A stretch of DNA of 6,028 nucleotides. Origin: a virus. Positions 417 through 6,028 of this stretch are shown piece by piece (positions within the stretch are counted from its first letter, which is position 1; the number at the start of each line of letters is the position of its first letter). The stretch lies in the IMG/VR virus record IMGVR_UViG_3300045988_005292; one strand, 5' to 3'. The position numbers and the translations under genes are program-made. The notes under the pieces were generated by a model that was not told the origin of the DNA, made no database searches, and saw only the letters and a list, made by a program, of their open reading frames with translations.

Positions 417-625
417 TACGCACTCGAGTAGATAAGAGTGTATAACGGGAGGGTGAGGTACGGCTTCAGCCAAAAGGCAGCTACCTTAAAACCGGGATAA
501 GGAGTGACCGGCACCCGACCTACGGTCGTGGTGTGCGGCTCTGCCGATACTAAGGTACTAGACGTTAAGGAGGGCTATGCGCCCTCTATTGCTCCATCAC
601 CGTTCAAACGCCACGGAGGCTTAAA
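417..625 (+). other. GC-rich, highly structured intergenic island. Candidates are a structured RNA (3' end of the rep transcript), a single-strand (complementary-strand) origin or an attachment site. The family is unknown.
   Basis: My hand count gives 111 G+C in 421..620 (55.5%), against 17/100 in 621..720 and 33/100 in 301..400. No ORF of 60 aa or more is listed on either strand. Clear local hairpins: cactc/gagtg (421-425/436-440); ggc-ttca-gcc (462-471); gcac-c-cgacc tac ggtcg-tggt-gtgc (511-536, 9 bp); gagggc tatgc gccctc (570-586, 6 bp, all but one G-C). Several longer-range alternative pairings also exist (see findings). Confidence 0.5.
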
Positions 626-673: not shown

Positions 674-705
674 TTTGTAGAAACCAAAAAAAACACGTAT
701 ATTTG
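674..705 (+). promoter_or_regulatory. Bacteroidetes-type promoter: -33 TTTG (674-677) and -7 TAnnTTTG (tatatttg, 698-705).
   Basis: This is the only exact TAnnTTTG I found when scanning every tttg in the window. A TTTG lies 20 nt upstream. The site sits in a 17% GC tract, about 28 nt upstream of the first gene of the co-directional gene string. The predicted transcription start is near 711-713. Confidence 0.55.
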
Positions 706-1856: not shown

Positions 1857-3791
1857 ATGGGAATACAAAAAAATATTGGTAAAAATACCATAGGAGACAA
1901 TAATAAAATGTCCGTAAGTCTACATGATTACAACATGTCGACACACGATTTATCAACAATCGTAAGAAATACACAAAGTCCGGGAACACTAGTTCCAAAT
2001 CTATGCCTAGTAGCTCAAAAAGGAGATACATTCGATATCGATATCGATTCAAACGTACTTACACATCCAACAACAGGACCTTTATTCGGTTCATTCAAAC
2101 TAGAACATCACATATATACAGGACCGGTAAGACTATATAATAGTTGGTTACACAATAACCGAACAAAAATAGGGCTGAATATGGAGCAAGTAAAATTGCC
2201 ACAAATGAAAGTGAAAATAAAAACATTGTCAGATAGTCCCTCAAATGAGGAATCACAATGGATACAAATAAATCCAAGTTGTCTACTAGCTTATCTAGGT
2301 ATCAGAGGATACGCTAATACACCCAATAGCGGAGAAGGAGAAGTAAGTAAAAATGCGCTACCTATATTAACGTATTTTGATATATTTAAAAATTACTACG
2401 CAAACACACAGGAAGAAAACTTCTACACAATTGGAACATCTCCAAAACTATCAATAAGCATCAATAATGTAGCAATAAATAATCCAGATGACATTATAGA
2501 AAGCCAAGGGTCAATAAATTCAACGTCAACCATAAAGGTAGTTGCAATAGGAGTAAAAATAAATAATATAAAATTAATAGTAAAACAAAACATATACGGA
2601 AGAACAACCGTAATGACTCCAGAGGAATTAGGGAGCGCAGAGGTAGCAAGCAACATCGTAACCATAAAAACAACAAAGATACCAGCCGGAGGAACATGGT
2701 TTGTAAGAAGCATATACTCAACGCAAAGAACATCTCTGGAAAAATATCCACTAGAAAACCTAGACACAATCAGAGATAAAATATTACTGACACCGGGAGA
2801 TACAATATTTGACATATCAAACGAAAACACGAGCGTTGCACCATTCACAAATTTTGCGAAGAGAAACACACAAGATATTTTAAACACAGCCTTTACACAA
2901 TATGGACTATGCCTAAAAACATACAACAGCGATATATATCAAAATTGGATCAACACCGAATGGATAGAAGGCGTAACCGGAATCAACGAAGCAAGTGCAG
3001 TAGACGTAGCAGACGGCAAACTGTCCATGGACGCACTAAATTTAGCACAAAAAGTATATAATTTCCTAAACAGAATTGCAATAAGCGGAGGTACTTATAG
3101 AGATTGGCTGGAAACAGTATACACAGGCGGAAACTACATGGAAAGATGTGAAACCCCAATGTTTGAAGGAGGTGTAAGCCAGGAAATCGTATTCCAAGAG
3201 GTAATAAGCAACAGCGCAAGCCAAGAAGAACCGCTAGGAACACTAGCAGGAAGAGGCGTTACAACAGGAAGACAAAAAGGCGGACACATTCGAATCAAAG
3301 TAACAGAACCATGCTATATAATGTGTATATGCTCAATCACGCCACGTATCGACTACGGACAGGGCAACACATGGGATACATATCTAAGCACTATGAATGA
3401 TTGGCACAAACCAGCACTTGACGGAATTGGATACCAAGATTCATTAAACGGTGAAAGAGCATGGTGGACGGACCACATTAAAACCAGCGGAGGACCATTA
3501 GTAAAAACAGCAGCCGGAAAAACTGTGGCGTGGATAAATTACATGACAAATGTAAACAGGACATTTGGCAACTTCGCGCCAGGAATGCCAGAAAGCTTCA
3601 TGGTACTTAACCGAAATTATTCAATGAATAACGAAGGTCAAATAGAAGATTTAACAACTTATATTGACCCGGTAAAATTCAATTACATCTTTGCAGACAC
3701 GAACCTAGACGCTATGAATTTTTGGGTACAAACAAAATTTGACATCAAAGTAAGACGTCTAATCAGTGCAAAACAGATTCCTAACCTATAA
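1857..3791 (+). CDS. VP1: Major capsid protein (Microviridae VP1 / F-like), 644 aa.
   Basis: This is the largest ORF. Its blocks correspond to conserved microvirus capsid blocks as I remember them: an N-terminal HDLS...PGTLVP...GDTF block, ALPILTYFDIFKNYYAN, LNLAQKVYNFLNRIAISGGTYRDWLETVY, PMFEGG...FQEV, EPLGTLAGRG and EPCYIMCICSITPR. A possible alternative start is ATG 1908 (MSVSLHDY...). Confidence 0.93.
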   Translation: MGIQKNIGKNTIGDNNKMSVSLHDYNMSTHDLSTIVRNTQSPGTLVPNLCLVAQKGDTFDIDIDSNVLTHPTTGPLFGSFKLEHHIYTGPVRLYNSWLHNNRTKIGLNMEQVKLPQMKVKIKTLSDSPSNEESQWIQINPSCLLAYLGIRGYANTPNSGEGEVSKNALPILTYFDIFKNYYANTQEENFYTIGTSPKLSISINNVAINNPDDIIESQGSINSTSTIKVVAIGVKINNIKLIVKQNIYGRTTVMTPEELGSAEVASNIVTIKTTKIPAGGTWFVRSIYSTQRTSLEKYPLENLDTIRDKILLTPGDTIFDISNENTSVAPFTNFAKRNTQDILNTAFTQYGLCLKTYNSDIYQNWINTEWIEGVTGINEASAVDVADGKLSMDALNLAQKVYNFLNRIAISGGTYRDWLETVYTGGNYMERCETPMFEGGVSQEIVFQEVISNSASQEEPLGTLAGRGVTTGRQKGGHIRIKVTEPCYIMCICSITPRIDYGQGNTWDTYLSTMNDWHKPALDGIGYQDSLNGERAWWTDHIKTSGGPLVKTAAGKTVAWINYMTNVNRTFGNFAPGMPESFMVLNRNYSMNNEGQIEDLTTYIDPVKFNYIFADTNLDAMNFWVQTKFDIKVRRLISAKQIPNL

Positions 3792-3804
3792 AAATTATAA
3801 CATT

Positions 3805-4122
3805 ATGAAATATTCAAAACCAACAAAAAACAACGGAAGACTAGAATCCGTAGAAATTTATGAAGGCGAAAGCATTGAAACAAAATGCGCAAGAGTACTG
3901 GAAAGCGGTGAACCAATCACAGACACCGCACCAATAATCTATACAGCAAAAGAAGATGGAATACTACCAGCATACAATATCCGTACAGACAGATTCGATA
4001 TTGCAATGGACGCATACGATAAAATAACAAGAAATTCGGCAAAAAAGGAAATAGCACCTAAGCCAGAAGATTTCGGGAATGTACCTAATAAAACAAACGG
4101 AGGGTCACCAAGTGAAAACTAA
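3805..4122 (+). CDS. Small protein (105 aa) between the capsid and pilot genes. It is possibly a scaffolding or internal protein, judged by position only.
   Basis: The track ORF starts at 3766 and would overlap the VP1 end. ATG 3805 lies 13 nt after the VP1 stop and gives MKYSKPTKNNGR... It contains an acidic/aromatic segment, IYTAKEDGILPAYNIRTDRFDIAMDAYD. The functional call rests on synteny only, since Gokushovirinae place VP2 and VP3 after VP1. Confidence 0.55.
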   Translation: MKYSKPTKNNGRLESVEIYEGESIETKCARVLESGEPITDTAPIIYTAKEDGILPAYNIRTDRFDIAMDAYDKITRNSAKKEIAPKPEDFGNVPNKTNGGSPSEN

Positions 4123-4126
4123 ACTG

Positions 4127-4146
4127 TTTGAAAAGGTATTTTCAAA
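4127..4146 (+). other. Hairpin 1 of the post-capsid intergenic region: tttgaaaa ggta ttttcaaa.
   Basis: A perfect 8-bp stem (4127-4134 with 4139-4146) and a 4-nt loop, starting 4 nt after the stop at 4122. Confidence 0.6.
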
Positions 4147-4149
4147 GCC

Positions 4150-4222
4150 TTGTAGGTAACAAGCACTTCGGAGTATTGTCCGGTTTAATTACCGGATAAT
4201 ACACGAAAGTACGCACCTACAA
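4150..4222 (+). terminator. Long imperfect hairpin (73 nt, about 28 bp) followed by TTTAATAT. Candidate intrinsic terminator and/or ssDNA origin structure.
   Basis: The outer stem ttgtaggt (4150-4157) pairs with acctacaa (4215-4222), 8 bp. The apical stem gtattgtccggt (4173-4184) pairs with accggataatac (4191-4202), 12 bp including one G-T, with loop ttaatt. The middle segments acttcg and cgaaagt pair with bulges. A T-rich run follows at 4223-4230. Confidence 0.4.
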
Positions 4223-4246
4223 TTTAATATCTAGTAATATGAATAT

Positions 4247-4266
4247 CGCTTTGAAACATCAAAGCG
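4247..4266 (+). other. Hairpin 3: cgctttga aaca tcaaagcg.
   Basis: A perfect 8-bp stem (4247-4254 with 4259-4266) and a 4-nt loop, 17 nt upstream of the VP2 start. No T-tract follows it. Confidence 0.6.
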
Positions 4267-4283
4267 CGAAAATGTAAATAATT

Positions 4284-5321
4284 ATGATAGGAGCAATAAT
4301 GGGAATAGGAGGAGCTCTAATGGGAGCACTCAACGCGAACAGCGCAAGTAACCAGAGTTGGCAAAGACAACACCAGCTAATGGAAATACAAGCTGAATTG
4401 AACAGAAAAAACGCCAAATTCAATACAACGCAAGCGAAAGAAATGTGGAATTACACCAACTTTGAAAACCAAATGAAACACATAAAAGATGCAGGACTAA
4501 GTCCAGGGCTAATTTATGGAATGGGAGGACAAGGAGGCTCAACACAAGGAGCAGGAACAGCAAGCGGAGTAGGACTGCCTCAAGACCAATCTGTAGGAAT
4601 GGGTCTAAGAGCACAGGAAATCGGAATAGAAATGGCAAACGCACTAAGCCAAATAAAACTTAATGAAAGCCAAGCTAACAAAAACGAAGCCGAAGCAAAT
4701 AAAATCAAAGGCGTAGATACAGAAGCGCAACAAGCCACCATTGACAATCTAATAGCGCAAACCTCAAACGAAAAAATAAAACGAGGACTTATATTAGGAC
4801 AAATCAGAGTAGCAGACGCCGAAGAAGAACTAAAAAGAAATACCGCAGATTGGACGAAAGAAAAAGCCGAGGAAACACGCTGGAACGTTAAAAGCCTCAA
4901 AAAAGGAATTGACAAGCTAACAGCGGAAATTGACGGAGTAGACCTCGACAATGAGCTAAAAAGAAAAACGATTGACAACAAAGTAAAAGAGAGTTCTCTA
5001 ATACTCCAAAACCTAATGGCTGAAATATTACTGAAGGGAAGCCAGAAAAAAGTTAATGAAGAACAGGCAAAAGCAATTCCAGCAGAAATATTACAAGGGT
5101 GGGAAAAACTTGTCAAAGAAGGAAAAGCTCTAATCATTCAAAAAGATCAGATGGAAGCCTACGCGCAAGATGTGATAAACAGATACGAACTAGGTAAAAA
5201 AGGTCTAGATATCGAAGAGCAAAAACTTATCAAAGACATTATACTAGGAATGTTAGAAATAGCATCCAAGGGAGCAGGAGCAGCCATGGGAGCAAAAGTA
5301 GGTAAAACAGGTTTTCAATAA
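4284..5321 (+). CDS. VP2: DNA pilot / minor capsid protein (Microviridae VP2, phiX174 H-like), 345 aa.
   Basis: The N-terminus is Gly-rich and hydrophobic (MIGAIMGIGGALMGAL). KDAGLSPGLIYGMGGQGG (about 4485-4538) matches a block I recall as typical of microvirus VP2 proteins. A long charged region with heptad-like spacing follows (LKRNTADWTKEKAEETRWNVKSLKKGIDKLTAEIDG...). The C-terminus is again Gly/Ala-rich (ASKGAGAAMGAKVGKTGFQ). Its position between the capsid and rep genes fits this call. Confidence 0.85.
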   Translation: MIGAIMGIGGALMGALNANSASNQSWQRQHQLMEIQAELNRKNAKFNTTQAKEMWNYTNFENQMKHIKDAGLSPGLIYGMGGQGGSTQGAGTASGVGLPQDQSVGMGLRAQEIGIEMANALSQIKLNESQANKNEAEANKIKGVDTEAQQATIDNLIAQTSNEKIKRGLILGQIRVADAEEELKRNTADWTKEKAEETRWNVKSLKKGIDKLTAEIDGVDLDNELKRKTIDNKVKESSLILQNLMAEILLKGSQKKVNEEQAKAIPAEILQGWEKLVKEGKALIIQKDQMEAYAQDVINRYELGKKGLDIEEQKLIKDIILGMLEIASKGAGAAMGAKVGKTGFQ

Positions 5322-5322
5322 T

Positions 5323-6028
5323 ATGTGTCTATATCCTAAACTCATACTAAACAAGCGGTATCTACCAACGAAAAAAAATGGTGGGGTACCGCCTGTTTGT
5401 CCAGATAAAAGATTACGTTATATAACAGCAGCATGCGGAGACTGTTACGAGTGTAGAAAACAAAAACAAAGGCAATGGGTGGTAAGAATGTCAGAGGAAA
5501 ACAGGCAAACACCAAATGCTTATTTTCTAACACTAACAATCGATGATAAATCATACAAGCAAATAAGCAAAAAATACAAATTAAAAGACGACAATGATAT
5601 TGCAACAAAAGCCATAAGATTATGCCTAGAAAGAGTACGGAAATTAACCGAAAAATCCGTAAAACACTGGTTTATTACAGAACTAGGACACGAAAAGACA
5701 GAAAGATTGCATCTCCACGGGATAGTATGGGGCTTAGGAAATGGCAAGAAAATAACAGACAATTGGAAATACGGTTTCACATTCACCGGCTATTTTGTGA
5801 ATGAAAAAACAATCAATTACATCACAAAATACATGCTAAAAATCGACGAAAAACACCCAAAATTCAGAGGGAAAGTATTATGCTCGGCAGGAATAGGGGC
5901 AGGATACCTCAAGCGAGAGGACGCCAAAAAACATGTATACATACAAGGCAAAACAAACGAATCGTACCGAATGAGAAACGGTGGAAAACTCAATCTACCA
6001 ATCTATTACAGAAACAAAATATTTACAG
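5323..6028 (+). CDS. VP4: Replication initiation protein (Microviridae VP4 / gpA-like HUH rolling-circle endonuclease), N-terminal part. The frame is open to the window end and continues at 80..414 on the circle.
   Basis: ATG at 5323 lies 1 nt after the VP2 stop (TAA 5319-5321). There is no stop in this frame before the window end, which is why the ORF track omits it. My translation is MCLYPKLILNKRYLPTKKNGGVPPVCPDKRLRYITAACGDCYECRKQKQRQWVVRMSEENRQTPNAYFLTLTIDD...RLHLHGIVWGLG...INYITKYMLK... RCR motif 1 is FLTLT (5524-5538). Motif 2 (HUH) is HLHGIVW (5710-5730). Motif 3 is YITKYMLK with two tyrosines (5818-5841), compare phiX174 gpA YVAKYVNK. An N-terminal Cys cluster (C26, then CGDCYEC) is typical of Microviridae VP4. 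The full protein across the junction is 346 aa. Confidence 0.92.
   Translation, partial: MCLYPKLILNKRYLPTKKNGGVPPVCPDKRLRYITAACGDCYECRKQKQRQWVVRMSEENRQTPNAYFLTLTIDDKSYKQISKKYKLKDDNDIATKAIRLCLERVRKLTEKSVKHWFITELGHEKTERLHLHGIVWGLGNGKKITDNWKYGFTFTGYFVNEKTINYITKYMLKIDEKHPKFRGKVLCSAGIGAGYLKREDAKKHVYIQGKTNESYRMRNGGKLNLPIYYRNKIFT
5950..6028. repeat. Terminal direct repeat copy B, identical to 1..79.
   Basis: Same comparison as for copy A. Base 5949 (c) has no counterpart at the start of the window, so the repeat is exactly 79 nt as presented. Confidence 0.95.

Follow-up and report, generated by a model that had tools for sequence, protein, structure and literature searches.

A conserved multi-hairpin element of gut microviruses as a candidate complementary-strand origin on the T-rich strand

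Every microvirus is expected to have a hairpin for priming (PMC9865509). Experiments have established complementary-strand origins for just a few E. coli microviruses, and none has been defined for the microviruses that dominate gut viromes. In phiX174, two of the cis elements that every microvirus needs are the primosome assembly site (PAS, the n'/PriA site), a single hairpin of ~55 nt in the F-G gap, and a 30-bp viral-strand origin located inside gene A (PMC9865509). In G4, the sequence GCGAAAGC lies at the primase primer start of the complementary-strand origin, and related motifs occur in St-1 and alpha3 (PMC13037366). Comparable elements outside the microviruses are the single-strand origins (sso) of rolling-circle plasmids (ssoA, ssoU, ssoT and ssoW) and of ICEBs1 (sso1). 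These are non-coding, multi-hairpin sequences of 150-300 nt that are active only as single-stranded DNA (ssDNA) and in one orientation relative to the displaced strand, and host RNA polymerase or primase reads them (PMC4595007). Here we describe a G+C-rich, non-coding island in the IMG/VR virus record IMGVR_UViG_3300045988_005292, a microvirus genome of 6,028 nt, the whole of which is called the window below.

We suggest that the island is probably a cis-acting element of folded ssDNA on the T-rich strand, which would form a complementary-strand origin cassette read by the host in the manner of an sso or of the G4 oric. We infer three components of this reading: packaging of the T-rich strand, DNA and not RNA as the active molecule, and priming as the function. 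An earlier reading of the letters of the window (the original prediction) had included such an origin among its options. It is now the best supported of them, but the strand that would fold and be packaged is the complement (non-coding and T-rich) and not the + strand. With its helices and motifs defined, the element is a testable candidate origin, and its coupling to strand composition offers a sequence-only marker of the likely packaged strand.

In blastn comparisons with phage records, the island was 75-86% conserved where genomes were otherwise ~67% identical to the window. The family was built by blastn, by pattern scans of viral and metagenome contigs and then with an nhmmer profile. It comprises 138 instances with 101 unique cores, and the 101 unique copies were aligned (alignment A3; nhmmer, MAFFT) as the basis of all 101-copy counts given below. 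True instances occurred only in contigs of ~5-7 kb, or in concatemers of units of this size, and human or animal gut was the source of most. Judged from this sampling, the element is conserved, covarying, pseudoknotted and restricted to gut microviruses. The original prediction could match the island to no RNA family, and an Rfam cmscan (4227 models, E<=10, both strands) likewise gave no match in 417-625. No similarity to the element was found by BLAST against 72,556 plasmids, and two element patterns had 0 matches in 185,579 bacterial and archaeal reference genomes. Since these plasmid and genome scans were empty, a host origin, an attachment (att) site and homology to plasmid sso were dropped.

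The structure model has 30 base pairs, scored on alignment A3. Across the 101 copies 93.9% of the cells were paired, compared with 30-56% in slid controls, and 22 of the 30 pairs had changes on both sides, giving a covariation score of 0.414 against 0.124 for shuffles. Conserved intrastrand pairing in non-coding DNA, a property of sso, is thus found in the element, and the expectation of a structured island with counterparts in related gut microviruses was borne out. Within these sequences covariation supports five hairpins, one loop pseudoknot and a mirror-repeat “paperclip” triplex (Table 1). Two of the hairpins originally read from the window, at 511-536 (Pa) and 570-586 (Pd), covary. A third, ggc-ttca-gcc at 462-471, is present in the window and its closest copies but belongs to the variable domain and is not family-wide; no consensus fold of that domain was found across subfamilies. 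A proposed long-range helix between 608-616 and 526-534 did not hold: 89.7% of its cells pair, but without covariation, and it is broken by changes for which the local helices compensate.

The non-nested signals were found by an all-against-all mutual-information scan. Pairings at PK1, between the Pd loop and a downstream segment, include TG/CA, CG/CG, ACC/GGT, ATC/GAT, CTC/GAG, GCC/GGC, GAG/CTC and AAA/TTT across the family, and the window has just 2 Watson-Crick pairs there (578-599 and 579-598). A second pseudoknot, PK2, is tentative. Support was not consistent for two other helices that were considered, the long-range GGGTG/CACCC and TACCTTA/TAAGGTA. In single-sequence folding the island gave z scores of -1.7 (+) and -1.6 (-) as RNA and -2.0 (+) and -2.1 (-) as DNA. 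It therefore folds better than shuffles on both strands, as had been supposed, but modestly so (z -1.6 to -2.1), and the strong evidence for structure is comparative. Coding is unlikely given the compensatory changes in the stems and the indels of lengths not divisible by three. The original statement that the island has no open reading frame (ORF) was nearly right, as two mechanical ORFs overlap it, 504-662 on the + strand (52 aa, GTG start) and 575-742 on the - strand (55 aa, TTG start).

The element was found in sense to the genes in 38 genomes and antisense in 37. The sense genomes form the clade of the window (VP1 at least 38% identical), and in them the element lies 16-80 nt after the rep stop. 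The antisense genomes (inverted type) represent a very different lineage (VP1 ~20-26% identical or undetectable), in which one end of the element abuts the stop of an opposite-strand pilot or other gene with a gap of 0-3 nt. At four-fold sites of the coding strand, the 51 window-type genomes had A 64%, T 14%, C 11% and G 11%, while the 49 inverted-type genomes had T 66%, A 14%, C 11% and G 10%. The coding regions of the window itself (e.g. 1857-3791 and 4284-5321) had 64% A and 13% T at these sites, the reverse of the usual NNT bias of ssDNA phages, and all 51 genomes of its clade share this pattern. Without recourse to annotation, the window-like orientation was on the A-rich strand in 100 of the 101 contigs, the exception (L085) being a palindromic chimera. 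As in an sso, orientation is therefore fixed relative to the packaged strand, if the T-rich strand is the displaced one.

Because the compositional bias is a mirror image relative to the genes, a transcription-linked bias cannot explain it, and one linked to replication or packaging can. The element is polar with respect to the replicon and not to gene expression. Since its direction follows the T-rich strand and not the genes, synthesis of the second DNA strand most likely starts from it. The packaged strand of ssDNA phages is marked by an excess of NNT codons and of thymine, which has been put down to C->T deamination of the genome in its single-stranded state (PMC3278643), and T accounts for 50-65% of four-fold sites in phiX174, Chp2 and SpV4. 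The lineage of the window probably packages the antisense, gene-complement strand.

The original prediction had also offered a terminator or insulator and an att site. In the clade of the window the element does lie between the last gene and the promoter, and temperate microviruses are known in Bacteroidetes (PMC3091885). However, no intrinsic terminator (hairpin plus T-run) was found on either strand of 350-780 (0 sites), and in half of the genomes the element is inverted to transcription and would be present in reverse complement relative to the mRNA. The att site is largely refuted by the 185,579 reference genomes and the plasmids lacking a match. Neither a transcription terminator or insulator nor a host-derived attachment site is at all likely.

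The element appears to be exchangeable between replicons with different Reps, as are plasmid sso. The Rep of the window and that of one inverted-type genome were barely alignable (E 0.002) and their VP1 proteins ~26% identical, with elements that were 85% identical; other cross-type pairs of elements reached up to 92% identity. In the neighbour-joining (NJ) tree of elements, at least 6 switches between genome types were needed. We suggest a host-read cassette because near-identical elements serve genomes with almost unrelated Reps. Both genome types are bona fide Microviridae, a family marked by an F-type capsid protein and an HUH Rep on a circular genome of ~6 kb. The closest GenBank relatives of the window have annotated major capsid, pilot and Rep proteins, the nearest being the human-gut Microviridae sp. 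PV067927.1 (79% identity). The inverted-type genomes have matches to Pfam Phage_F and REP_ORF2-G2P, and the Phage_F match to the window VP1 is weak.

The same polarity coupling is exactly what a Rep-dependent viral-strand origin (double-strand origin, dso) would yield, and there is very little other non-coding DNA in these genomes. A dso could be, or lie within, the module, with Rep nicking at ...ACCTTG|ATATCGG..., a conserved single-stranded tract of the T-rich strand flanked by two hairpins, and so setting the polarity of the replicon. In support, the sequence CTTGATAT, identical to the phiX174 origin core CAACTTG|ATATTAATAAC, occurs on the T-rich strand, the putative viral strand, in 59 of 101 copies, and within the element the motif was found 44 times on the T-rich strand and once on the A-rich strand. 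Unlike in phiX174, however, the motif varies within Rep clades (CATAGTAT in 23 copies, CTTAGTAT in 14, and others), among genomes with Reps more than 80% identical, and the window is without any CTTGATA. Near-identical elements accompanying almost unrelated Reps are hard to fit with Rep-origin specificity, and the 8-mer match is post hoc and of limited weight. A Rep nick site in the element, whether as a rival to the complementary-strand origin or as an addition to it, is thus rather unlikely and forms no part of our main claim.

The evidence points to the T-rich strand, the complement of the window + strand, as the strand that folds, and to folding as DNA. In the robust helices, read on the window-like strand, A.C occupied 50 cells and G.T 8, corresponding to 27 and 5 inferred events (p ~1e-4), or to 18 and 5 with the dominant pair removed. 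Pair 517-527, for example, was G-C in 64 copies, A-T in 6, A.C in 31 and G.T in 0. An A.C on the window-like strand means a G.T wobble on the complement. At Pb, the complement carries a c-GNA-g triloop in 79 of 101 copies (GAA 53, GGA 25, GTA 1) and the other strand in 0 of 101. The complement of Pb reads CGGC-AGA-GCCG in the window and CGGC-GAA-GCCG in most relatives, and the exact heptamer GCGAAGC was found in 41 of 101 copies. As DNA, d(GCGAAGC) has a melting temperature (Tm) of 76.5 C, compared with 39 C for r(GCGAAAGC), and CGGCGAAAGCCG is poorly bound by single-stranded DNA-binding protein (SSB) (PMC13037366). Such mini-hairpins resist nuclease and SSB, and forms with GAA or GGA loops also occur in RSF1010 ssiA and in the single-stranded promoters of phage N4 (PMC13037366). 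If the T-rich strand is packaged, the complement is the only naturally single-stranded form of the element.

Comparison with the G4-type oric (G4, St-1, phiK and alpha3) supports the same strand. There too a G+C-rich non-coding island stands in a compact microvirus genome (in G4, the F-G gap has 58% GC and the genome 46%), the viral strand has several hairpins, and a CGGCGA(A)AGCCG-type mini-hairpin, with a purine loop closed by G..A and resistant to SSB, marks the primer site (PMC13037366). The G4 origin motif is CGGCGAAAGCCG, and the G4 record has GGACGGCGAAAGCCGCCGTCC in the F-G gap at the annotated primer/origin. A GCG(N)NAGC mini-hairpin is present on the putative viral strand in the 79 copies with a GNA loop, and priming would be predicted to occur there. 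The element differs in having a loop of 3 nt (GNA) where G4 has GAAA, and in its length of ~200-290 nt; for G4, neither a pseudoknot nor a triplex like those of the element has been described. It is also opposite to the genes in the clade of the window, and its host is probably a member of Bacteroidota, not E. coli. The element was unmatched in G4 and phiX174 by nhmmer (E<=10), and blastn-short gave trivial matches of 8-10 nt only. In phiX174, the PAS is a single hairpin and the origin is within a gene, unlike the element.

A second comparison concerns ssoA. On the putative functional strand the hexamer TAGCGT was found in 55 of 101 copies and TAGCGA in 34 (89 together), with TAACGT in the window; TAGCGT/TAGCGA is the CS-6 of ssoA (PMC4598088). 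Unlike in ssoA, where CS-6 stands in a terminal loop, the hexamer is half buried in the covarying 2-bp stem Pc. It lies in the most conserved part of the element (547-569), the complement of which is CCTTAACGTCTAGTACCTTAGTAT in the window and CCTTAGCG(T/A)CTAGCACCTTGATAT in most relatives, and the most conserved single-stranded tract on this strand is CCTTAGCG(T/A)CTAGCACCTTGATATCGGC. Nothing similar to an RSB-like block (e.g. TTATGCCGAGAAAATTT, PMC4598088) was found in alignment A3. We regard the CS-6-like and nick-like motifs as leads, not tests.

The segment 592-595 is complementary in parallel to the 5′ arm of Pd and is therefore an exact mirror of the 3′ arm. This third strand fits at 352 of 404 positions, compared with ~100 of 404 in shifted or antiparallel registers. 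For the 10 distinct combinations of arm and third strand, 3 of 10,000 permutations fit as well. Scored as parallel pairs, 95.5% of third-strand cells were complementary against 71% in shuffles, a value that 0 of 500 shuffles reached. The covariation suggests an intramolecular triplex with the purine-loop-pyrimidine-loop-pyrimidine “paperclip” layout, capped by the pseudoknot and having 4 layers only. It resembles H-DNA “paperclip” triplexes, and RNA pseudoknots with major-groove triples (SAM-II, preQ1-II, telomerase RNA and ENE), in its R-loop-Y-loop-Y mirror layout (R-loop-R-loop-Y on the complement), in a third strand that tracks the duplex purines and in the cap formed by a loop pseudoknot. 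It differs from them in having so few layers and in matching no Rfam family.

The chemistry of these layers favours a DNA fold of the T-rich complement. There the layers would be G.G-C and A.A-T, and a recurrent variant (13 copies, CACC on the + strand) would give T.A-T; the purine motif, which does not depend on pH, permits each of the three. The same layers on the + strand require 2-3 adjacent protonated cytosines, and the CACC variant sets A opposite an A-U pair. Semerad and Maher reportedly found in 1994 that RNA strands are excluded from purine-motif triplexes. Functional natural DNA triplexes are rare, and the mirror repeat of the element would be an example; we know of no description of a natural DNA triplex inside a phage origin.

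Our proposed mechanism starts when the viral strand enters the cell and the element folds into a cluster of short G+C-rich hairpins. Part of this fold would be the c-GNA-g mini-hairpin, which resists nuclease and SSB, and another part a hairpin held in place by the third strand and the loop pseudoknot; the whole would remain free of SSB. A host priming enzyme (primase/primosome or RNA polymerase) would recognise the fold and make the primer for the complementary strand. Being read by the host and not by Rep, the cassette would have moved repeatedly among microviruses that are not related, and every insertion would have kept the orientation in which the displaced, packaged strand carries it.

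A broader proposal, which we advance tentatively and which may or may not hold, is that the window represents a negative-sense microvirus. The T-rich, origin-bearing strand would be encapsidated and all genes would lie on its complement, polarity relative to the genes would have flipped between gut lineages, and the host-read cassette, including a pseudoknot-capped intramolecular DNA triplex, would have been gained anew on several occasions, each time on the packaged strand. Our literature search on polarity found no report of a microvirus clade that packages the gene-complement strand, and even a single gene on the complementary strand was described by Roux et al. 2012 as “highly unusual” for Microviridae (PMC3394797). 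The data suggest that a large clade of gut microviruses may oppose the textbook rule that all Microviridae genes are on the viral strand. If true, this polarity would affect strand-specific quantification of ssDNA viromes, the reading of mutational spectra and phage engineering.

Several observations weigh against a complementary-strand origin on the T-rich strand. The analysis is computational throughout, and the packaged strand of these viruses is taken from sequence. The window itself departs from the family motifs, having AGA and not GNA in the Pb loop, TAACGT for TAGCGT and CTTAGTAT for CTTGATAT. The genome types are essentially two deep clades, so that independent choices of orientation rest on an NJ/Fitch estimate. 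T-richness of the coding strand is not universal among microviruses, as the cultured phiMH2K is A-rich at four-fold sites (A 45%, T 23%). The excess of A.C may come from the C->T bias of the T-rich strand, since ~5:1 is close to the compositional bias. The remaining points concern a second folded region and the possibility of an RNA.

The second non-coding region, at 4123-4283 between the ORF at 3766-4122 and the pilot gene, folds far more strongly than the island. It has three near-perfect hairpins, a DNA z score of -7.06 with 0 of 200 shuffles as good, and 34% GC. It is 87-99% conserved in the subclade of the window, to which it is confined, and is absent from the inverted clade. It may contain terminators or attenuators, or be another origin and the real priming site in that subclade. 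A true priming site there would favour a different role of the element on packaged ssDNA, such as nucleating condensation or packaging, or shielding incoming ssDNA from nucleases or defence. Such a role would share the evidence on polarity and on the DNA strand, and it accords with the resistance of the mini-hairpins to nuclease and SSB (PMC13037366). The analogy of these mini-hairpins nevertheless points specifically to priming sites, and no precedent for elements of the other kind is known in Microviridae. To our knowledge, packaging of the phiX174 type needs no signal besides Rep at the origin. We consider a non-priming role on the packaged strand improbable. The only Rfam match in the window, to mir-3578 at 4150-4222 (E 0.76), is a chance match and corresponds to the long hairpin of this region.

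The alternative of a structured RNA in the window-like sense was kept from the original prediction, which had suggested a regulatory RNA. The element would be a non-coding RNA of ~200 nt or a 3′ untranslated region (3′-UTR) element of the rep mRNA, with an H-type pseudoknot and U.A-U and C+.G-C triples, and would serve as a regulator, a decoy of host defence or an exonuclease block. The covariation fits RNA as well as ssDNA, and an H-type pseudoknot with major-groove triples is a classic RNA architecture, seen in the pseudoknot-plus-triplex RNAs SAM-II, preQ1-II, telomerase RNA and ENE. In the clade of the window the element is at the 3′ end of an operon and would be transcribed. In 84 of 101 copies the window-like strand had the lower whole-element minimum free energy (MFE), and the terminal pair of P0 is a T.G wobble on that strand in 27 copies. 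We gave the MFE comparison little weight because the window-like strand is G-rich and gains non-native G.U pairs.

Against an RNA, half of the genomes carry the element antisense to all of their genes, and no promoter for it could be recognised there. A search for a dedicated promoter in either orientation found none that was consistent, the matches on the T-rich strand being compositional noise. An RNA also provides no reason for the coupling to strand composition, which orientation tracks in place of transcription. A.C is frequent but one-sided changes from G-C to G-U hardly occur, the 13 copies with the CACC third strand would oppose A to an A-U pair, and the Pb loop on the window-like strand (UUC/UCC) is nothing special, in contrast to GNA on the other strand. 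No Rfam family was matched. A functional RNA is therefore unlikely, and a DNA origin on the T-rich strand remains our preferred reading.

The window has an exact 79-nt direct repeat at its ends (1-79 and 5950-6028), an assembly overlap of a circular contig, so that the unit circle is 5,949 nt. The island was originally noted for 111 G+C in 200 nt (421-620), and our recount gave the same figure. The genome maximum per 200 nt is 0.555 at 419, the runner-up elsewhere 0.47 and the remainder of the window 0.356. Its position between the rep stop (412-414) and the sole match to a Bacteroidetes-type promoter (674-705) was as noted, and in ~30 of 42 window-type genomes this promoter lies 73-84 nt past the element. 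ARAGORN detected 0 tRNA or tmRNA genes.

Table 1. Coordinates of the element, its parts and the neighbouring features in the window.
Feature	Position	Strand	Remarks
Whole conserved element (short version)	421-625	- (putative functional strand = complement, 625->421)	blastn/nhmmer family
Hairpin P0	421-425/436-440	-	formable in 95/101; arms CACCT/GGGTG, CACCT/AGGTG, CACTC/GAGTG covary
Near-invariant block TATAAC-GGG (complement CCC-GTTATA)	441-449	-	invariant T and A columns in alignments A2, A3
Variable domain	450-510	-	subfamily-specific; includes 462-471 hairpin
Two-part hairpin Pa	512-515/530-533 + 517-520/524-527	-	7/8 pairs compensatory; complement loop c-GTA-g
Mini-hairpin Pb	536-539/543-546	-	pair 538-544 shows 4 pair types
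Most conserved tract, incl. 2-bp mini-stem Pc (557-558/564-565)	547-569	-	A3 alignment
Hairpin Pd (duplex part of putative triplex)	570-575/581-586	-	5/6 pairs doubly changed; 98.7% of cells paired
Putative third strand	592-595	-	mirror repeat of Pd arm 586->583 (paperclip triplex)
Pseudoknot PK1	Pd loop 578-580 with 597-599	-	four pair types each at 578-599, 579-598
Hairpin Pe	600-603/613-616	-	CCGT/ACGG, GCGT/ACGC, GCGC/GCGC, TCGT/ACGA; 98.5% of cells paired
Candidate pseudoknot PK2	610-612 with 618-620	-	one covarying pair: C611-G619 -> G-C in 14 sequences; tight geometry
Bacteroidetes-type promoter TTTG (674-677)-N20-TATATTTG (698-705)	674-705	+	flank; small-gene/VP1 operon
VP1	1857-3791		
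Pilot-protein gene	4284-5321		
Rep, 346 aa	start 5323, across circle junction, stop TAA 412-414	+	flank, outside element

Most relatives carry ~85 further conserved, hairpin-rich nucleotides past 421/P0 (...GCTGCGC...CCGTGTTAACATCACACGGGTCTGTATTTAACACCTC...), in both genome types (e.g. L029 5656-5740 and L031 1037-1120). This extension is missing from the window and from L019 and L134, which have the short version and in which rep ends 7 nt before P0. In one inverted-type lineage (L023, L047, L059, L061 and similar), a long near-perfect G+C-rich hairpin, CGAGGAGCACA...CTATGCAG/CTGCATAG...TGTGCTCCTCG, followed by a G-run, was found ~90-150 nt past the extension. Half-element mosaics were also observed (L004, L009, L069, L072, L078, L080; L045-L067, L006, L008). 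Some retain the half up to the CGATATCAAGGTGCTA tract and others the half from GCACCC on, suggesting recombination breakpoints inside the module.

Pattern matches in eight large viral contigs lacked the flanking motifs and were attributed to chance. The palindromic contig L085 (10.5 kb) is an inverted-duplication chimera of one microvirus genome, an assembly artefact, and two contigs of 9-11 kb (L102 and L116) are head-to-tail concatemer artefacts with two copies of the element ~6 kb apart. In OP549868.1 a “hypothetical protein” coding sequence is annotated right over the element (1433-1675), which the covariation pattern marks as a probable mis-annotation. The Bdellovibrio phage phiMH2K (AF306496, a gokushovirus) has CTTGATA twice on the non-coding strand and never on the coding strand. 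In the window, the promoter is followed within 674-732 by a strong Shine-Dalgarno sequence, AAGGAGGT, 8 nt before the ATG of the first small gene at 733. Strong Shine-Dalgarno sequences are generally absent from Bacteroidota genes, and the combination with this type of promoter is thus unusual.

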